Of a stretch of DNA of 64,000 bases, positions 38,968-48,250 are shown one piece after another. Below the pieces are notes generated by a model, which worked only from the letters and a program-made list of their open reading frames with translations, was not told the DNA's origin and did no database searches. The translations under genes were made by a program, and so were the position numbers. The stretch lies in assembly GCF_003018255.1 (NCBI RefSeq), contig NZ_CP027440.1; one strand, 5' to 3'. This stretch comes from Escherichia coli. GTDB lineage: Bacteria; Pseudomonadota; Gammaproteobacteria; Enterobacterales; Enterobacteriaceae. Position 1 is the first letter of the stretch; each line of letters starts with the position of its first letter.

Positions 38968-41900
38968 ATGAACAAAATTTTTAAAGTTATCTGGAATCCA
39001 GCGACGGGCAGTTACAGCGTTGCCAGCGAAACGGCGAAGAGCCGTGGTAAAAAAAGCGGGCGCAGTAAGCTGTTAATTTCTGTACTAGTTGCGAGTGGGT
39101 TGTTGTCGTCGTTTGGAGCGTTAGCTAATAACTACGACGGGCAGCCAACTGATTATGGCGATGGCTCAGCAGGTGACGGCTGGGTTGCTATCGGTAAAGG
39201 GGCAAAAGCAAATACCTTTATGAACACTAGTGGCGCGAGTACAGCTTTAGGATATGACGCGATAGCCGAAGGTGAGTACAGTTCTGCCATCGGGTCAAAA
39301 ACCCTTGCAACTGGTGGAGCATCCATGGCGTTCGGGGTTAGTGCAAGAGCAATGGGTGACAGAAGTGTCGCGCTGGGTGCATCGTCAGTAGCAAATGGCG
39401 ATCGTTCGATGGCTTTTGGTCGTTACGCAAAGACGAATGGTTATACATCTCTTGCTATTGGGGACTCCTCCCTTGCCGATGGTGAAAAAACTATTGCGTT
39501 AGGAAATACGGCTAAAGCTTACGAAATTATGAGCATCGCCCTCGGTGATCATGCCAATGCGTCAAAAGAATATTCAATGGCGCTGGGTGCAAGTAGTGCC
39601 GCATCTGCGGCTAACGCGATTGCAGTAGGCCGCAACAGTGCTGCAGCTGGCGTAGACAGCCTCGCATTCGGTAGACTATCCGCCGCCAACGCCGCAAACG
39701 CGATTGCTATGGGTGCAGAGAGCAAAGCTGCTGAAAATGCGACGGCAGTTGGTACTAACGCGGAGGCAAATGGACTTAATAGTATCGCGTTGGGCTCCGG
39801 CAGTATTGCAGATGTCGACAACACTATTGCTCTGGGCAATCAAAGTCAGGCAGTAGCGGCTGGCGCAATTGCCATCGGTCAAGGGAATAAAGCTGACGGC
39901 GCAAATGCTATCGCGCTGGGTAATGGTAGTATTACAGGTGGTGTAAATGCTATTGCTCTTGGACAAGGCAGTTATGCCGGTTTAGAAAATGGCACTGCAA
40001 TTGGTGCTCAAGCCAGTGCTCAGGGGAAAAATTCAGTTGCTCTGGGTGCTGGTTCTGTAGCGACTGACGCGGATACTGTTTCTGTGGGTAACACAACAGC
40101 TCAGCGACAAATTGTCAATATGGCAGCAGGTGATATCAGCACTACCAGTACTGATGCCATCAATGGATCACAGCTTTATGCTATCAGTAAGTCAGTAGCG
40201 GACAATCTTGGTGGGGGGGCTACCGTCAATGCGCAAGGCGTCGTTACTTCCCCAAATTACAGGCTGAAAAGTGGTATTTTCGGCACTGTTGGCGACGCCT
40301 TAACGGGCCTGGACAATAATACGTTACAATGGGACTCCCTTAAAAAGGCATATAGTGCGGCACATGGTACAGATACTACCAGTACCATCACCAACGTTAA
40401 AGACGGCGCTATTTCTGATACCAGTAAGGATGCGGTTAACGGTTCTCAGCTGAAAACCACCAACGATAACGTAGCGACCAATACTGCCAATATCACCACC
40501 AACACTAACAGTATCAATACCCTGACGGATTCCGTTGGCGACCTTAAAGACGATGCCCTGCTGTGGAATGGCACCGCGTTCAGCGCCGCGCACGGCACCG
40601 AAGCCACCAGCAAAATCACCAACGTCAAAGACGGTGACCTGACGGCTGGCAGCACCGACGCGGTTAACGGCTCTCAGCTCAAAACCACTAACGATGCCGT
40701 GGCAGCCAACACCACCAATATCGCCACGAACACCACCAACATCACCAACCTGACTGACGCTGTTGACAGTCTCGGTGATGACTCTCTGCTGTGGAATGAT
40801 GCAGCGAAAGCATTCAGTGCCGCTCACGGTACCGATGCCACCAGCAAAATCACTAACGTCAAAGACGGTGACCTGACGGCTGGCAGCACCGACGCGGTTA
40901 ACGGCTCTCAGCTCAAAACCACTAACGATGCCGTGGCAGCCAACACCACCAATATCGCCACGAACACCACCAACATCACCAATCTGACTGACGCTGTTGA
41001 CAGTCTCGGTGATGACTCTCTGCTGTGGAATGATGCAGCGAAAGCATTCAGCGCCGCGCACGGTACTGATGCCACCAGCAAAATCACTAACGTCAAAGAC
41101 GGTGACCTGACGGCTGGCAGCACTGACGCGGTTAACGGCTCTCAGCTCAAAACCACTAACGATGCCGTGGCAGCCAACACCACCAATATCGCCACGAACA
41201 CCACCAACATCACCAACCTGACTGACGCTGTTGACAGTCTCGGTGATGACTCTCTGCTGTGGAATGATGCAGCGAAAGCATTCAGCGCCGCGCACGGTAC
41301 TGATGCCACCAGCAAAATCACTAACGTCAAAGACGGTAACCTGACGGCTGGCAGCACTGACGCGGTTAACGGCTCTCAGCTCAAAACCACTAACGATGCC
41401 GTGGCAGCCAACACCACCAATATCGCCACGAACACCACCAACATCACCAACCTGACTGACGCTGTTGACAGTCTCGGTGACGATTCCCTGCTGTGGAACG
41501 CTACGGCGGGTGCATTCAGTGCCAAACACGGCACCAACGGTACTGACAGCAAAATCACCAACTTACTGGCAGGCACTGTATCCTCTGATAGCACTGACGC
41601 CATTAATGGCTCACAACTTTATGGTTTAGCTGATTCATTTACGTCATACCTTGGCGGTGGTGCTGATATCAGCGATGCGGGTGTATTAACCGGGCCAACC
41701 TACACTATTGGTGGTACTGACTACAATAACGTCGGTGATGCTCTGGCAGCCATTAACACGTCATTTAGCACATCACTCGGTGACGCCCTACTCTGGGATG
41801 CGACCGCCAAGGGCGGTGACGGTGCGTTTAGCGCCGGTCGCGGAAAAGATAACACGGCCAGCATCATTACTAATGTTGCAGACGGTGCAATTTCCTCTAC

Positions 41901-44220
41901 CAGCAGCGACGCTATTAACGGCTCACAGCTCTATGACACCAGTAAGTACATTGCCGATACTCTGGGTGGTGACGCAGAAGTCAATGCTGACGGCACAATC
42001 ACCGCACCGACTTATGCTATCGCTGGCGGCAGTTACAGCAACGTCGGTGACGCGCTGGAAGCAATCGATACCACGCTCGATGACGCTCTGTTGTGGGATG
42101 CCACAGCCAATGATGGTAATGGTGCATTTAGCGCCGCTCACGGAAAAGATAAAACAGCCAGTGTAATCACTAACGTCGCTAACGGTGCAATCTCTGCCAC
42201 CAGCAGCGATGCCATTAACGGTTCACAACTGTATACCACCAACAAGTACATTGCCGATGCCCTGGGTGGTGACGCAGAAGTTAACGCTGATGGTTCTATC
42301 ACTGCGCCGACTTACACCATTGCAAATGCCGAGTACAACAACGTCGGTGACGCCCTGGATGCGCTCGACGATAACGCTCTGCTGTGGGATGCAACGGCCA
42401 ATGACGGCGCAGGTGCCTACAACGCCAGCCATGACGGCAAGGCCAGCATCATCACAAATGTTGCTGATGGTAACATTGGCGAAGGCAGTACCGACGCCAT
42501 CAACGGTTCTCAGCTGTTTAACACCAATATGATGATCCAGCAGAACAGCGAAATCATCAATCAGCTTGCCGGTAACACCAGCGAAACCTACATCGAAGAT
42601 AACGGTGCGGGTATTAACTATGTACGTACCAACGACAACGGCTTAGCGTTCAACGATGCCAGCGCTTCAGGTATTGGCGCTACGGCTGTGGGTTATAACT
42701 CTGTTGCCGAAGGCGATAGCAGCGTAGCCATCGGTCAGGGCAGCTACAGCGACGTTGATACCGGTATTGCCCTGGGTAGCAGCTCCGTTTCCAGCCGTGT
42801 AATAGTTAAAGGTTCTCGTGACACCAGCGTGTCGGAAGAAGGTGTTGTGATTGGTTATGACACCACGGATGGCGAACTACTTGGTGCGCTGTCTATTGGT
42901 GATGACGGTAAATATCGTCAAATCATCAACGTAGCCGATGGTTCCGAAGCCCATGACGCCGTTACGGTTCGCCAGTTGCAAAATGCCATTGGTGCAGTCG
43001 CTACCACGCCGACCAAATACTTCCACGCCAACTCAACGGCTGAAGACTCACTGGCTGTCGGGGAAGACTCGCTGGCGATGGGCGCGAAAACTATCGTCAA
43101 TGGTAATGCGGGTATTGGTATCGGCCTGAATACTCTGGTTCTGGCAGATGCCATCAACGGTATTGCTATCGGTTCTAACGCACGCGCCAACCATGCAAAC
43201 AGTATTGCAATGGGTAATGGTTCTCAGACCACTCGCGGCGCTCAGACTGGCTACACCGCCTACAACATGGATGCACCGCAGAACTCTGTGGGTGAATTCT
43301 CCGTAGGTAGCGAAGACGGTCAACGTCAGATCACCAACGTCGCAGCGGGGTCGGCGGATACCGATGCGGTTAACGTGGGTCAGTTGAAAGTAACGGACGC
43401 GCAGGTTTCCCAGAATACCCAGAGCATTACTAACCTGAATACTCAGGTAACGAATCTGGATACCCGCGTCACCAATATCGAAAACGGTATTGGCGATATC
43501 GTAAGCACCGGTAGCACCAAGTACTTCAAGACCAACACCGATGGCGTAGATGCTAACGCGCAGGGTAAAGACAGTGTTGCGATTGGCTCTGGCTCTATTG
43601 CTGCCGCTGATAACAGCGTTGCGCTGGGTACTGGCTCTGTGGCAAACGAAGAAAATACGATCTCCGTAGGTTCTTCCACTAACCAACGCCGTATCACCAA
43701 CGTTGCCGCTGGTAAAAATGCTACTGACGCGGTTAACGTTGCGCAGTTGAAGTCTTCCGAAGCAGGCGGCGTGCGGTATGACACCAAAGCTGACGGTTCT
43801 GTTGATTACAGCAACATCACTCTCGGCGGTGGTAATGGCGGAACGACTCGCATCAGCAACGTTTCCGCTGGCGTTAACAACAACGACGCGGTGAACTACG
43901 CGCAGTTGAAGCAAAGCGTGCAGGAAACGAAGCAATACACCGATCAGCGCATGGTTGAGATGGATAACAAACTGTCCAAAACCGAAAGCAAGTTGAGCGG
44001 TGGTATCGCTTCTGCAATGGCGATGACCGGTCTGCCGCAGGCTTACACGCCAGGTGCCAGCATGGCCTCTATTGGTGGCGGTACTTACAACGGTGAATCG
44101 GCTGTTGCTTTAGGTGTGTCGATGGTGAGCGCCAATGGTCGTTGGGTCTACAAATTACAAGGTAGTACCAATAGCCAGGGTGAATACTCCGCCGCGCTCG
44201 GTGCCGGTATTCAGTGGTAA
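38968..44220 (+). CDS. upaG: Trimeric autotransporter adhesin (UpaG/EhaG/SadA family)
   Basis: 1750 aa; extended signal peptide region [20 protein letters not shown]…; YadA-like head repeats (…SIALGxGS…); long repetitive stalk; C-terminal YadA-type anchor ending …[13 protein letters not shown]. Symbol assigned by family and position only. Confidence 0.8.
40549..41478 (+). repeat. Tandem array of about four 234-bp (78-aa) repeats inside the adhesin stalk; copies 2-4 near-identical
   Basis: Unit [78 protein letters not shown] recurs with starts near 40777, 41011 and 41245 (period 234 bp); more diverged copies flank it. Confidence 0.85.
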
Positions 44221-44252
44221 TCATCCATTAACGAATGGGTAAACGCCACATT

Positions 44253-44337
44253 GCCTGATGCGCTACGCTTATCAGGCCTACGGGGTGATTCAGCACTACC
44301 CTGTAGGCCGGATAAGGCGTTCACGCCGCATCCGGCA
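44253..44337. repeat. BIME (pair of inverted REP elements) downstream of the adhesin gene
   Basis: gcctgatgcgctacgcttatcaggcctac … gtaggccggataaggcgttcacgccgcatccggca. Confidence 0.7.
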
Positions 44338-44416
44338 AGATAAGGCGCACCAGATCAACAATCTGAGGGCAATTCTCTGATGGGAATTGCCCTTTTCTTC
44401 ATTACCTCTCTCCCAG

Positions 44417-44433
44417 AATTGGCCCTACCAATT
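44417..44433. promoter_or_regulatory. Putative LldR operator O1 (palindrome AATTGGCCCTACCAATT)
   Basis: Perfect 17-bp palindrome about 200 bp upstream of the lldP start; a second related site lies about 126 bp downstream, matching my recollection of the two-operator lldPRD promoter. Confidence 0.5.
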
Positions 44434-44542
44434 CTTCATTGATCTGACCTCTGGTTCACAATTCCCCAATTAAAACTCACATCACCGTTGCCAATACATA
44501 ACATCTAGTTAACTATTCATTGTCATTATCCCTACACAACAC

Positions 44543-44559
44543 AATTGGCAGTGCCACTT
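44543..44559. promoter_or_regulatory. Putative LldR operator O2 (AATTGGCAGTGCCACTT)
   Basis: Related imperfect palindrome (TGGCA-G-TGCCA core) between O1 and the lldP start codon. Confidence 0.45.
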
Positions 44560-44631
44560 TTACACAACGTGTGACAAGGAGATGAGCAACAGACTCATTA
44601 CACGGCGTGTGTGGACTGCAGGAGACCTGCA

Positions 44632-46287
44632 ATGAATCTCTGGCAACAAAACTACGATCCCGCCGGGAATATCTGGCTTTCCAGCCTGATAGCATCGCTT
44701 CCCATCCTGTTTTTCTTTTTTGCGCTGATTAAGCTCAAACTGAAAGGATACGTCGCCGCCTCATGGACGGTGGCAATCGCCCTTGCCGTGGCTTTGCTGT
44801 TCTATAAAATGCCGGTCGCTAACGCGCTGGCCTCGGTGATTTATGGCTTCTTCTACGGTTTGTGGCCCATCGCGTGGATCATTATTGCGGCAGTGTTCGT
44901 CTATAAGATCTCGGTGAAAACCGGGCAGTTTGACATCATCCGCTCGTCTATTCTTTCGATAACCCCTGACCAGCGCCTGCAAATGCTGATCGTCGGTTTC
45001 TGTTTCGGCGCTTTCCTTGAAGGAGCCGCAGGCTTTGGCGCTCCGGTAGCAATTACCGCCGCATTGCTGGTCGGTCTGGGCTTTAAACCACTCTACGCCG
45101 CCGGACTGTGCCTGATTGTTAACACCGCGCCAGTGGCATTTGGTGCGATGGGTATTCCGATTCTGGTCGCCGGGCAGGTAACAGGCATCGACAGCTTTGA
45201 GATTGGTCAGATGGTGGGGCGTCAGTTGCCGTTTATGACCATTATCGTGCTGTTCTGGATCATGGCGATTATGGACGGTTGGCGCGGAATCAAAGAAACG
45301 TGGCCTGCGGTCGTGGTGGCAGGTGGTTCGTTTGCCATTGCTCAATACCTCAGCTCTAACTTCATTGGGCCGGAACTGCCAGACATTATCTCTTCGCTGG
45401 TATCACTGCTCTGCCTGACGCTGTTCCTCAAACGCTGGCAACCAGTGCGCGTATTCCGTTTCGGTGACTTGGGGGCGTCACAGGTTGATATGACGCTGGC
45501 TCACACCGGTTACACCGCAGGTCAGGTGCTTCGCGCCTGGACACCGTTCCTGTTCCTGACCGCCACCGTAACGCTGTGGAGTATCCCGCCGTTTAAAGCC
45601 CTGTTCGCTTCAGGCGGTGCGCTGTATGAGTGGGTGATCAACATTCCGGTGCCGTACCTCGATAAACTGGTTGCCCGTATGCCGCCAGTGGTCAGCGAAG
45701 CGACAGCGTATGCCGCCGTGTTTAAGTTTGACTGGTTCTCTGCCACCGGTACCGCCATTCTTTTTGCTGCCCTGCTCTCAATTGTCTGGCTGAAGATGAA
45801 ACCATCTGACGCTATCAGCACCTTCGGCAGCACGCTGAAAGAACTGGCTCTGCCTATCTACTCCATCGGTATGGTGCTGGCGTTCGCCTTTATCTCGAAC
45901 TATTCCGGACTATCATCAACGCTGGCGCTGGCACTGGCGCACACCGGCCATGCATTCACCTTCTTCTCGCCGTTCCTCGGCTGGCTTGGTGTCTTCCTGA
46001 CCGGATCGGATACCTCATCTAACGCCCTGTTCGCCGCCCTGCAAGCCACTGCAGCACAACAAATTGGCGTTTCTGACCTGTTGTTGGTTGCCGCCAACAC
46101 CACCGGTGGTGTCACCGGTAAGATGATCTCTCCGCAATCTATCGCTATCGCCTGTGCGGCGGTAGGCCTGGTGGGCAAAGAGTCTGATTTGTTCCGCTTT
46201 ACTGTCAAACACAGCCTGATCTTCACCTGTATGGTGGGCGTGATCACCACGCTTCAGGCTTATGTCTTAACGTGGATGATTCCTTAA
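44632..46287 (+). CDS. lldP: L-lactate permease
   Basis: 551 aa from [18 protein letters not shown]… (GGAGAC RBS); LctP-family polytopic membrane protein. Confidence 0.9.
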
Positions 46288-47063
46288 TGATTGTTTTACC
46301 CAGACGCCTGTCAGACGAGGTTGCCGATCGTGTGCGGGCGCTGATTGATGAAAAAAACCTGGAAGCGGGCATGAAGTTGCCCGCTGAACGTCAACTGGCG
46401 ATGCAACTCGGCGTGTCGAGAAATTCACTGCGCGAGGCGCTGGCGAAACTGGTCAGTGAAGGTGTGCTGCTCAGTCGACGTGGCGGCGGGACGTTTATTC
46501 GCTGGCGTCATGATACATGGTCGGAGCAAAACATCGTCCAGCCGCTGAAAACGCTGATGGCCGATGATCCGGATTACAGTTTCGATATTCTGGAAGCCCG
46601 CTACGCCATTGAAGCCAGCACCGCGTGGCATGCGGCAATGCGCGCCACACCAGGCGAAAAAGAGAAAATTCAGCTTTGCTTTGAAGCAACGCTAAGTGAA
46701 GACCCGGATCTCGCCTCACAAGCGGACGTTCGTTTTCATCTGGCGATTGCCGAAGCCTCACATAACATCGTGCTGCTGCAAACCATGCGCGGTTTCTTCG
46801 ATGTCCTGCAATCCTCTGTGAAGCATAGCCGCCAGCGGATGTATCTGGTACCCCCGGTTTTTTCACAGCTGACCGAACAACATCAGGCAGTCATTGACGC
46901 CATTTTTGCCGGTGATGCTGACGGGGCGCGTAAAGCAATGATGGCGCACCTTAGCTTTGTTCACACCACCATGAAACGATTCGATGAAGATCAAGCTCGC
47001 CATGCACGCATTACCCGCCTGCCTGGTGACCATAATGAGCATTCGAGGGAGAAAAACGCATGA
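46287..47063 (+). CDS. lldR: GntR/FadR-family regulator of the L-lactate operon
   Basis: 258 aa from [16 protein letters not shown]…; start overlaps the lldP stop (TAATG); GntR-type HTH followed by an FCD domain. Confidence 0.85.
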
Positions 47064-48250
47064 TTATTTCCGCAGCCAGCGATTATCGCGCCGCAGCACA
47101 ACGCATTCTGCCGCCGTTCCTGTTCCACTATATGGATGGGGGTGCATATTCTGAATACACGCTGCGCCGCAACGTGGAAGATTTGTCAGAAGTGGCGCTG
47201 CGCCAGCGTATTCTGAAAAACATGTCTGACTTAAGCCTGGAAACGACGCTGTTTAATGAGAAATTGTCGATGCCGGTGGCGCTAGGTCCGGTAGGTTTGT
47301 GTGGCATGTATGCGCGACGCGGCGAAGTTCAGGCTGCCAAAGCCGCGGATGCGCATGGCATTCCGTTTACTCTCTCGACGGTTTCCGTTTGCCCGATTGA
47401 AGAAGTGGCTCCAGCCATTAAACGTCCGATGTGGTTCCAGCTTTATGTGCTGCGCGATCGCGGCTTTATGCGTAACGCACTGGAGCGAGCAAAAGCGGCA
47501 GGCTGCTCGACACTGGTTTTCACCGTGGATATGCCGACACCGGGCGCGCGTTACCGTGATGCACACTCGGGTATGAGCGGCCCAAATGCGGCAATGCGCC
47601 GTTACTTGCAGGCGGTGACGCATCCGCAATGGGCGTGGGATGTGGGCCTGAACGGTCGTCCACATGATTTAGGTAATATCTCGGCTTACCTCGGCAAACC
47701 GACCGGACTGGAAGATTACATCGGCTGGCTGGGGAATAACTTCGATCCGTCCATCTCATGGAAAGACCTTGAGTGGATCCGCGAATTCTGGGATGGTCCG
47801 ATGGTGATCAAAGGGATCCTCGATCCGGAAGATGCGCGCGATGCAGTACGTTTTGGTGCTGATGGGATTGTGGTTTCTAACCACGGTGGCCGCCAGCTGG
47901 ACGGTGTACTCTCTTCCGCTCGTGCATTGCCCGCTATTGCGGATGCGGTGAAAGGTGATATTGCCATTCTGGCAGATAGCGGAATACGTAACGGGCTTGA
48001 TGTCGTGCGTATGATTGCGCTCGGTGCCGACACCGTACTGCTGGGTCGTGCTTTCCTGTATGCGCTGGCAACAGCGGGCCAGGCGGGCGTGGCAAATCTG
48101 CTGAATCTGATCGAAAAAGAGATGAAAGTGGCAATGACGCTGACTGGCGCGAAATCGATTAGCGAAATTACGCAAGATTCGCTGGTGCAGGGGCTGGGTA
48201 AAGAGTTGCCGGCGGCACTGGCTCCGATGGCGAAAGGGAATGCGGCATAG
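47060..48250 (+). CDS. lldD: FMN-dependent L-lactate dehydrogenase
   Basis: 396 aa; alpha-hydroxy-acid oxidase family sequence; start overlaps the lldR stop. Confidence 0.9.

Follow-up and report, generated by a model that had tools for sequence, protein, structure and literature searches.

Two palindromic sequences, 126 bp apart in the region upstream of lldP, are almost certainly the LldR operators O1 and O2 of the lldPRD promoter, an ordinary feature whose identical sequence has been described before in this species. The window, that is, the whole 64,000-nucleotide stretch of Escherichia coli chromosomal DNA analysed here, contains the following two sites:

44417..44433, unstranded: LldR operator O1, AATTGGCCCTACCAATT, at -105 to -89 from the presumed transcription start; the high-affinity site, required for lactate activation
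44543..44559, unstranded: LldR operator O2, AATTGGCAGTGCCACTT, at +22 to +38, within the 5' untranslated region of lldP; the weaker of the two sites, needed for repression

The original prediction had placed a pair of operator-like palindromes here, on either side of the probable lldP promoter, and this observation was confirmed. Both strings were read directly from the sequence at these coordinates, the distance was recomputed as 126 bp (start-to-start and centre-to-centre, with 109 bp between the sites), and the two palindromes flank the promoter of lldP, whose RefSeq start lies at window position 44632. O1 consists of perfect 6-bp arms (AATTGG/CCAATT) around a 5-bp spacer, and O2 of 8-bp arms with a single mismatch (AATTGGCA/TGCCACTT). 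Scored against the idealised palindrome AATTGGN5CCAATT, O1 matches at 12/12 and O2 at 11/12 positions, and these are the only two sites in the 64-kb window that reach at least 11/12. First-order Markov simulations contained on average 0.26 such sites per 64 kb, with two of them within 200 bp of each other in 0/200 simulations, and the observed count was reached in 0/100 shuffles, a test in which the pattern was derived from O1 and O2 themselves. When the degenerate LldR box from the literature was used as the query, with up to three mismatches allowed, O2 was missed and O1 was returned together with one unrelated site, which is the level expected by chance. Given this search and the self-derived pattern of the shuffle test, O2 is supported by conservation and experiment and not by in-window statistics.

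The experimental evidence comes foremost from genomic SELEX (Anzai et al. 2023; PMC10272880, Table 1), in which two LldR boxes, AAtTGGcCctACCAaTT and AAgTGGcactgCCAaTT, are listed for the lldP promoter. Sequence comparison showed that the former equals O1 and that the latter is the reverse complement of 44543..44559, so that both 17-mers are identical to the experimentally bound sequences; the LldR box used for comparison was AAnTGGTCnGACCAnTT. In the same study O1 was scored as an LldR box at 12/14 and O2, as its reverse complement AAGTGGCACTGCCAATT, at 10/14, the two boxes were said to be in agreement with both binding sequences given by Aguilera et al. 2008 (J Bacteriol 190:2997), and lldP gave both the strongest LldR peak (62.9) and the highest-affinity gel shift (PMC10272880). 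O1 has also been quoted as the 17-nt sequence needed for LldR binding (PMC3582500). The predicted correspondence to a dual operator, with one LldR site on either side of the transcription start, is likewise found in the literature, where repression needs both sites and lactate-dependent activation needs the upstream one (PMC3424551); a further account describes sites flanking the start, repression by both and activation via the upstream site, and adds a looping model (PMC5412874).

Binding of these sequences by LldR is well supported, and LldR probably binds O1 and O2 in this strain too, to judge from their identity with the K-12 sites. The operators also agree with the numerical coordinates that have been given for them. 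In the 2008 abstract of Aguilera and colleagues, transcription reportedly starts 110 nt before the ATG, with O1 covering -105..-89 and O2 covering +22..+38. From this start site we take +1 to be position 44522 (44632 - 110), and simple arithmetic then puts the two intervals on 44417..44433 and 44543..44559, exact to the base. Because both coordinate pairs fit exactly, the placement of +1 at 44522 is itself supported. Published coordinates out of register with the palindromes had been named as the outcome that would speak against the assignment; the two align, the numerical values being those reportedly given in the 2008 abstract.

The lldPRD locus and its probable core promoter

The operators are embedded in the following features, with RefSeq annotation for the genes and with the promoter hexamers assigned from conservation and spacing:

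38968..44220: gene for a YadA-like trimeric autotransporter, 1750 aa (RefSeq annotation)
44222..44346: REP-like repeats, with sub-threshold naRNA4 (RF02564) matches
44365..44394, plus strand: terminator-like hairpin with a T-run, 13-pair stem, conserved in K-12
44488..44493, plus strand: probable -35 hexamer TTGCCA, -34..-29
44508..44525, plus strand: putative ArcA-box-like sequence GTTAACTATTCATTGTCA, overlapping the -10 and +1
44511..44516, plus strand: probable weak -10 hexamer AACTAT, -11..-6, with a 17-bp spacer
44522, plus strand: presumed start of lldPRD transcription (+1), 110 nt before the lldP ATG, a distance reportedly given in the Aguilera 2008 abstract
44632..46287, plus strand: lldP, L-lactate permease (RefSeq; Pfam Lactate_perm, E = 1e-235)
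46287..47063, plus strand: lldR, GntR/FadR-subfamily regulator (RefSeq; Pfam GntR and FCD)
47060..48250, plus strand: lldD, quinone-dependent L-lactate dehydrogenase (RefSeq; Pfam FMN_dh, E = 4e-127)

An intact lldR, which encodes the cognate regulator, lies in the same operon as O1 and O2. Its product scores 498 bits against the NCBIfam LldR equivalog (cut-off 311) and differs from K-12 LldR by three conservative substitutions, at residues 124, 142 and 248, none of which falls within the Pfam GntR (DNA-binding) match (residues 8-71). Downstream of lldD follow trmL, cysE and gpsA. On the other side, the terminator-like hairpin closes off the adhesin gene that lies upstream and thereby keeps the lldP promoter insulated. 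The adhesin gene is preceded by a DUF3251 gene; in K-12 the adhesin gene is absent and yibL occupies its position. The REP-like repeats, situated after the stop codon of the adhesin gene and before the terminator hairpin, explain the approximately 38 places per E. coli genome that were hit in megablast searches.

A sigma-70 consensus scan of 44150..44700 returned no promoter at threshold, because the -10 is poor. Such a poor -10 fits an activator-dependent promoter. The -35 and -10 hexamers, which we infer, coincide with invariant positions of a 10-species alignment, namely the TTGC of the -35 and the TAAC block at the -10. Around them, the block 44499..44535 is 80-100% conserved across genera and contains the ArcA-box-like GTTAAC...ATTGTCA. 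This agrees with published work in which lldPRD is a directly ArcA-repressed operon (PMC3798270), in which the ArcA operator lies between O1 and O2 (PMC8689689), and in which the -35, the -10 and the ArcA operator are all placed between the two LldR sites (PMC5412874, PMC8689689).

A further conserved element, GGTTCACAA, was observed at 44451..44459 (about -71..-63), between O1 and the -35. Its TTCACA is 90-98% conserved across 81 loci and its neighbours are poorly conserved; the block resembles a CRP half-site (TCACA), with a weak partner half-site.

Conservation of the operators and of their positions

Within E. coli, the promoter of the window was compared with that of K-12 MG1655, and O1, O2, the 126-bp spacing and the distances to the ATG were found to be identical, as is the lldP-lldR-lldD order. 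The two loci differ by 8 substitutions in the 109 bp between the operators, by a 6-bp indel just upstream of O1, and by the neighbouring gene, a YadA-like adhesin in place of yibL. One of the substitutions, at 44514, falls in the presumed -10, which reads AACCAT in K-12 and AACTAT in the window. Among the divergent E. coli alleles that were sampled, the operators vary only by A/G at position 1 of O1 and by G/A at position 11 of O2, and the spacing is always 126 bp; in E. albertii it is 125 bp.

The lldP promoter region is present once in 5420/5426 complete E. coli genomes. The allele of the window is rare: at least 99% identity over the 171 bp from 44405 to 44575 was observed in 2/5420 complete genomes, most of the others being about 95% identical, and the differences from other E. 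coli lldP alleles over this interval lie between the operators. The promoter region is 100% identical to that of E. coli strain JNE23-011. Operator polymorphism was seen in strains EC6868, K12a and DETEC-P836 (loci L083, L084 and L085), at the positions aligned to 44417 and 44553, and the A variant at position 11 of O2 is nearer to the ACCA consensus than the G variant.

Conservation across Enterobacteriaceae had been proposed as a check of the operator assignment, and here the sites held throughout. An LldP scan of a species-representative genome collection identified 80 loci from about 30 enterobacterial genera, or 81 together with K-12. Exactly two TGG-N5-CCA boxes are found upstream of lldP in 81/81 loci, and in both boxes T4, G5, G6, C12, C13 and A14 are invariant. 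Of the 81 loci, 57 have an O1-O2 spacing of 126 bp and 20 have one of 125 bp, with a range of 123-127 bp and a standard deviation of 0.61 overall; the distance from O2 to the ATG ranges from 57 to 94 bp with a standard deviation of 9.2. In 80/82 loci lldR follows lldP; contig ends interrupt the remaining two. The Buttiauxella/Cedecea group keeps a spacing of 124-125 bp even though the upstream half of its inter-operator DNA can scarcely be aligned.

That the two palindromes arose by chance in an AT-rich intergenic region is virtually impossible in our estimation. The yield of the degenerate consensus, O1 and one unrelated site, would be in keeping with chance; against it stand the simulations, none of which produced a comparable pair, and the retention of both boxes in every locus across some 30 genera. 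This reading was rejected on the grounds of conservation and of the published binding data (PMC10272880).

Two groups of loci deserve separate description. In L073-L078, L080 and L082 (Cedecea, Dryocola, Enterobacter sp. R1(2018) and Buttiauxella) the leader is about 30 bp shorter, so that O2 starts 57-61 bp before the ATG, compared with 84-94 bp elsewhere; in the majority of them O1 and O2 are both nearly identical TATTGGTCCTACCAATC-type boxes, nearer to the PdhR/LldR consensus. The other case is L005 (CALXDF010000207.1), from a metagenome-assembled genome labelled 'uncultured Oscillospiraceae bacterium', in which LldP is 100% identical to that of E. coli and both operators are identical as well; most likely this represents E. 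coli contamination of the bin.

Besides protein binding, the palindromes could be read as RNA hairpins, with O1 belonging to a minus-strand small RNA (Rfam STnc380) and O2 forming a stem-loop in the lldP 5' untranslated region. On the minus strand, STnc380 (RF02055) has a match at 44357..44458, the family consensus shows AAUUGGUAGGGCCAAUU as a hairpin, and a similar weak match (20.2 bits) is found upstream of lldP in Salmonella diarizonae. The match in the window, however, scores 25.9 bits against a gathering score of 60 and so stays below threshold, as did every match of the Rfam scan (STnc380 antisense over O1, and naRNA4/REP-like). Among 28 distinct O1 sequences, moreover, the core pairs are invariant, and changes in the outer pairs are not compensated: only 9/28 keep pair 1-17 complementary, and double-sided changes are absent at pairs 2-16 and 3-15. 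An invariant core with uncompensated outer pairs therefore points to base-specific protein contacts and not to an RNA stem, and binding of protein has been shown experimentally (PMC10272880). The RNA-hairpin reading, which we regard as very improbable, was rejected on the invariance of the arms and the lack of covariation.

The consensus of STnc380, a Salmonella small-RNA candidate, contains the O1 reverse complement drawn as a hairpin together with the adjacent terminator hairpin, and the Rfam family appears to have been built over the antisense strand of the lldP upstream region. When STnc380 was looked up in the literature, the sole result, STnc3800, was a false match.

When the O1-O2 interval was divided at the core promoter in 78 loci, the distance from O1 to the -35 was 69-72 bp and accounted for all of the variation in O1-O2 spacing. 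The distance from the -35 to O2 was 55 bp in 76/78 loci, and that from the -35 to the TAAC of the -10 region was 22 bp in 78/78. No compensating indels between the O1-promoter and promoter-O2 segments were found among these 78 loci, and the conserved spacing is therefore explained equally well by each operator being held in a fixed position relative to RNA polymerase. The genome comparison thus supports a functional positioning of both sites and would be compatible with looping as much as with separate action, without deciding between the two.

Proposed looping, possible independent action and a possible role of PdhR

The original prediction had associated this layout with repression by DNA looping. 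The layout itself stands: the two operators bracket the lldP promoter, both have been reported as necessary for repression (PMC3424551, PMC5412874), and looping is the published model. The loop has the status of a proposal, and no direct demonstration of an O1-O2 loop was found among the papers examined here. According to the model, LldR dimers would occupy O1 and O2 when lactate is absent and would interact with each other, and the resulting loop of about 126 bp would enclose the weak sigma-70 promoter and the ArcA site and keep basal transcription low. Binding of L- or D-lactate would change the conformation of LldR, repression via O2 would be lost, and LldR at O1 would then activate transcription. 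The paralogue PdhR might also occupy O1 and so link the operon to pyruvate. On the whole, we infer that O1-O2 looping contributes to repression with a confidence somewhat better than even.

Looping is described in the literature as dependent on angular orientation, and removal of 10 bp between O2 and the -10 abolished induction (PMC8689689). The spacing of 126 bp corresponds to 12.0 turns at 10.5 bp per turn and to 11.15-11.45 turns at 11.0-11.3 bp per turn, and the phase argument accordingly depends on the helical repeat that is assumed. The PDB holds no structure of E. coli LldR, the nearest solved relatives being PdhR and NanR.

The two sites might instead act independently of each other and without a loop, the spacing merely following from the attachment of each site to the core promoter. 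LldR at O2 (+30) would then block open complex formation or promoter escape, and O1 (-97) would be a lactate-dependent activator site only. The segment distances given above, with their lack of compensating indels, are in favour of such independence. So are the results of a massively parallel reporter assay on lacUV5 (Yu et al.; PMC7804116), in which proximal LldR sites gave no repression and LldR sites showed no distal-proximal synergy, periodic or otherwise, and on which the authors comment that LldR may not use looping. Deletion of lldR, moreover, lowered lldP promoter activity, and LldR was described as mainly an activator (PMC10272880). On the other side, the assay employed a foreign promoter, a proximal site at +12 and chromosomal LldR levels (PMC7804116). 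A lone operator at +30 would be a poor roadblock, and strong HU dependence is typical of short loops. Mutation of O1 is also said to have raised basal transcription in the work of Aguilera and colleagues (abstract, 2008), with helical-phase mutants reportedly behaving like O2 mutants (paraphrased in PMC8689689), which counts against independent action. We consider independent action to be rather unlikely.

Looping between O1 and O2 could involve an architectural protein. Transcript levels of lldP were raised 49.6-fold in hupA and 17-fold in hupAB mutants in exponential phase (PMC2634741, Table 5), which provides indirect support for a protein-assisted short loop and could also be an indirect effect. 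A specific form of this idea would be a GalR-like repressosome, in which LldR dimers on the two operators would close a 126-bp loop dependent on DNA bending by HU, and PdhR would compete at O1; we hold this to be speculative and improbable in its full form. The near-invariant geometry (69-72 bp from O1 to the -35, and 55 bp from there to O2) is compatible with a repressosome and no proof of one. The comparison is drawn with the gal operators OE and OI, which are 113 bp apart: in both systems the operators flank the promoter at a distance of about 11-12 turns, the regulator is dimeric and the dependence on HU is strong. In gal, the loop, the HU site and the requirement for supercoiling have been demonstrated, whereas lldPRD is likened to it from operator geometry and HU dependence. 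Furthermore, GalR sites are synergistic and LldR sites were without synergy in the reporter assay (PMC7804116), and LldR, unlike GalR, also activates from its upstream site.

Evidence for a second regulator centres on O1, which may be a PdhR operator or an operator shared by PdhR and LldR, with pyruvate and lactate both exerting control. O1 agrees at 13/14 positions with the PdhR box AATTGGTnnnACCAATT of the pdhR-aceEF-lpd, ndh and cyoA promoters and is among the sites bound by PdhR in genomic SELEX, from which O2 is absent; in a pdhR mutant the level of lldPRD mRNA rose 3.3-fold (PMC7660256). Among its paralogues LldR is closest to PdhR, and position 7 of O1 is T in 19/81 loci, including some that match all 14 positions of AATTGGTnnnACCAATT (for example L075). 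Against a PdhR operator proper, the genome-wide LldR SELEX signal peaks by a wide margin at lldP (PMC10272880), and PdhR would in any case add to LldR binding and not replace LldR. Classically, PdhR exerts simple repression from one site immediately downstream of the start, whereas lldPRD has two sites 126 bp apart and a dual-role LldR. Reportedly, according to the 2008 abstract of Aguilera and colleagues, a pdhR mutation had no effect on lldP-lacZ expression. The literature is thus divided on PdhR at lldP because the effect on lldPRD mRNA stands against this reported null result, and a role for PdhR at O1 appears to us to be a serious possibility, its chances only slightly short of even.

Relation to other LldR systems and significance

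The LldR regulators of Corynebacterium glutamicum and Pseudomonas aeruginosa (FadR-type TNGTNNNACNA) belong to the same subfamily as that of the window and share with it a palindromic core of the TGG/CCA type and lactate as the effector. In these two species LldR acts through a single operator and by simple derepression. The enterobacterial promoter is unlike them in having two operators and an activator function of LldR.

Annotation of O1 and O2 marks the control region of L-lactate utilisation in this strain, in which both operators and their spacing are unchanged despite an unusual set of substitutions between them. If a loop assisted by HU were indeed formed, it would explain both why lldP is derepressed about 50-fold in hupA mutants and why bare LldR sites fail to repress a foreign promoter, and if PdhR competes at O1, pyruvate would be a second input to the operon. 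As a small comparative addition, the placement of the operators with respect to the core promoter varies by no more than 1-2 bp across about 80 species, while the length of the leader varies by more than 30 bp. The lldPRD promoter is widely reused in lactate biosensors, and these conserved distances are the ones that designers of such sensors should not alter.
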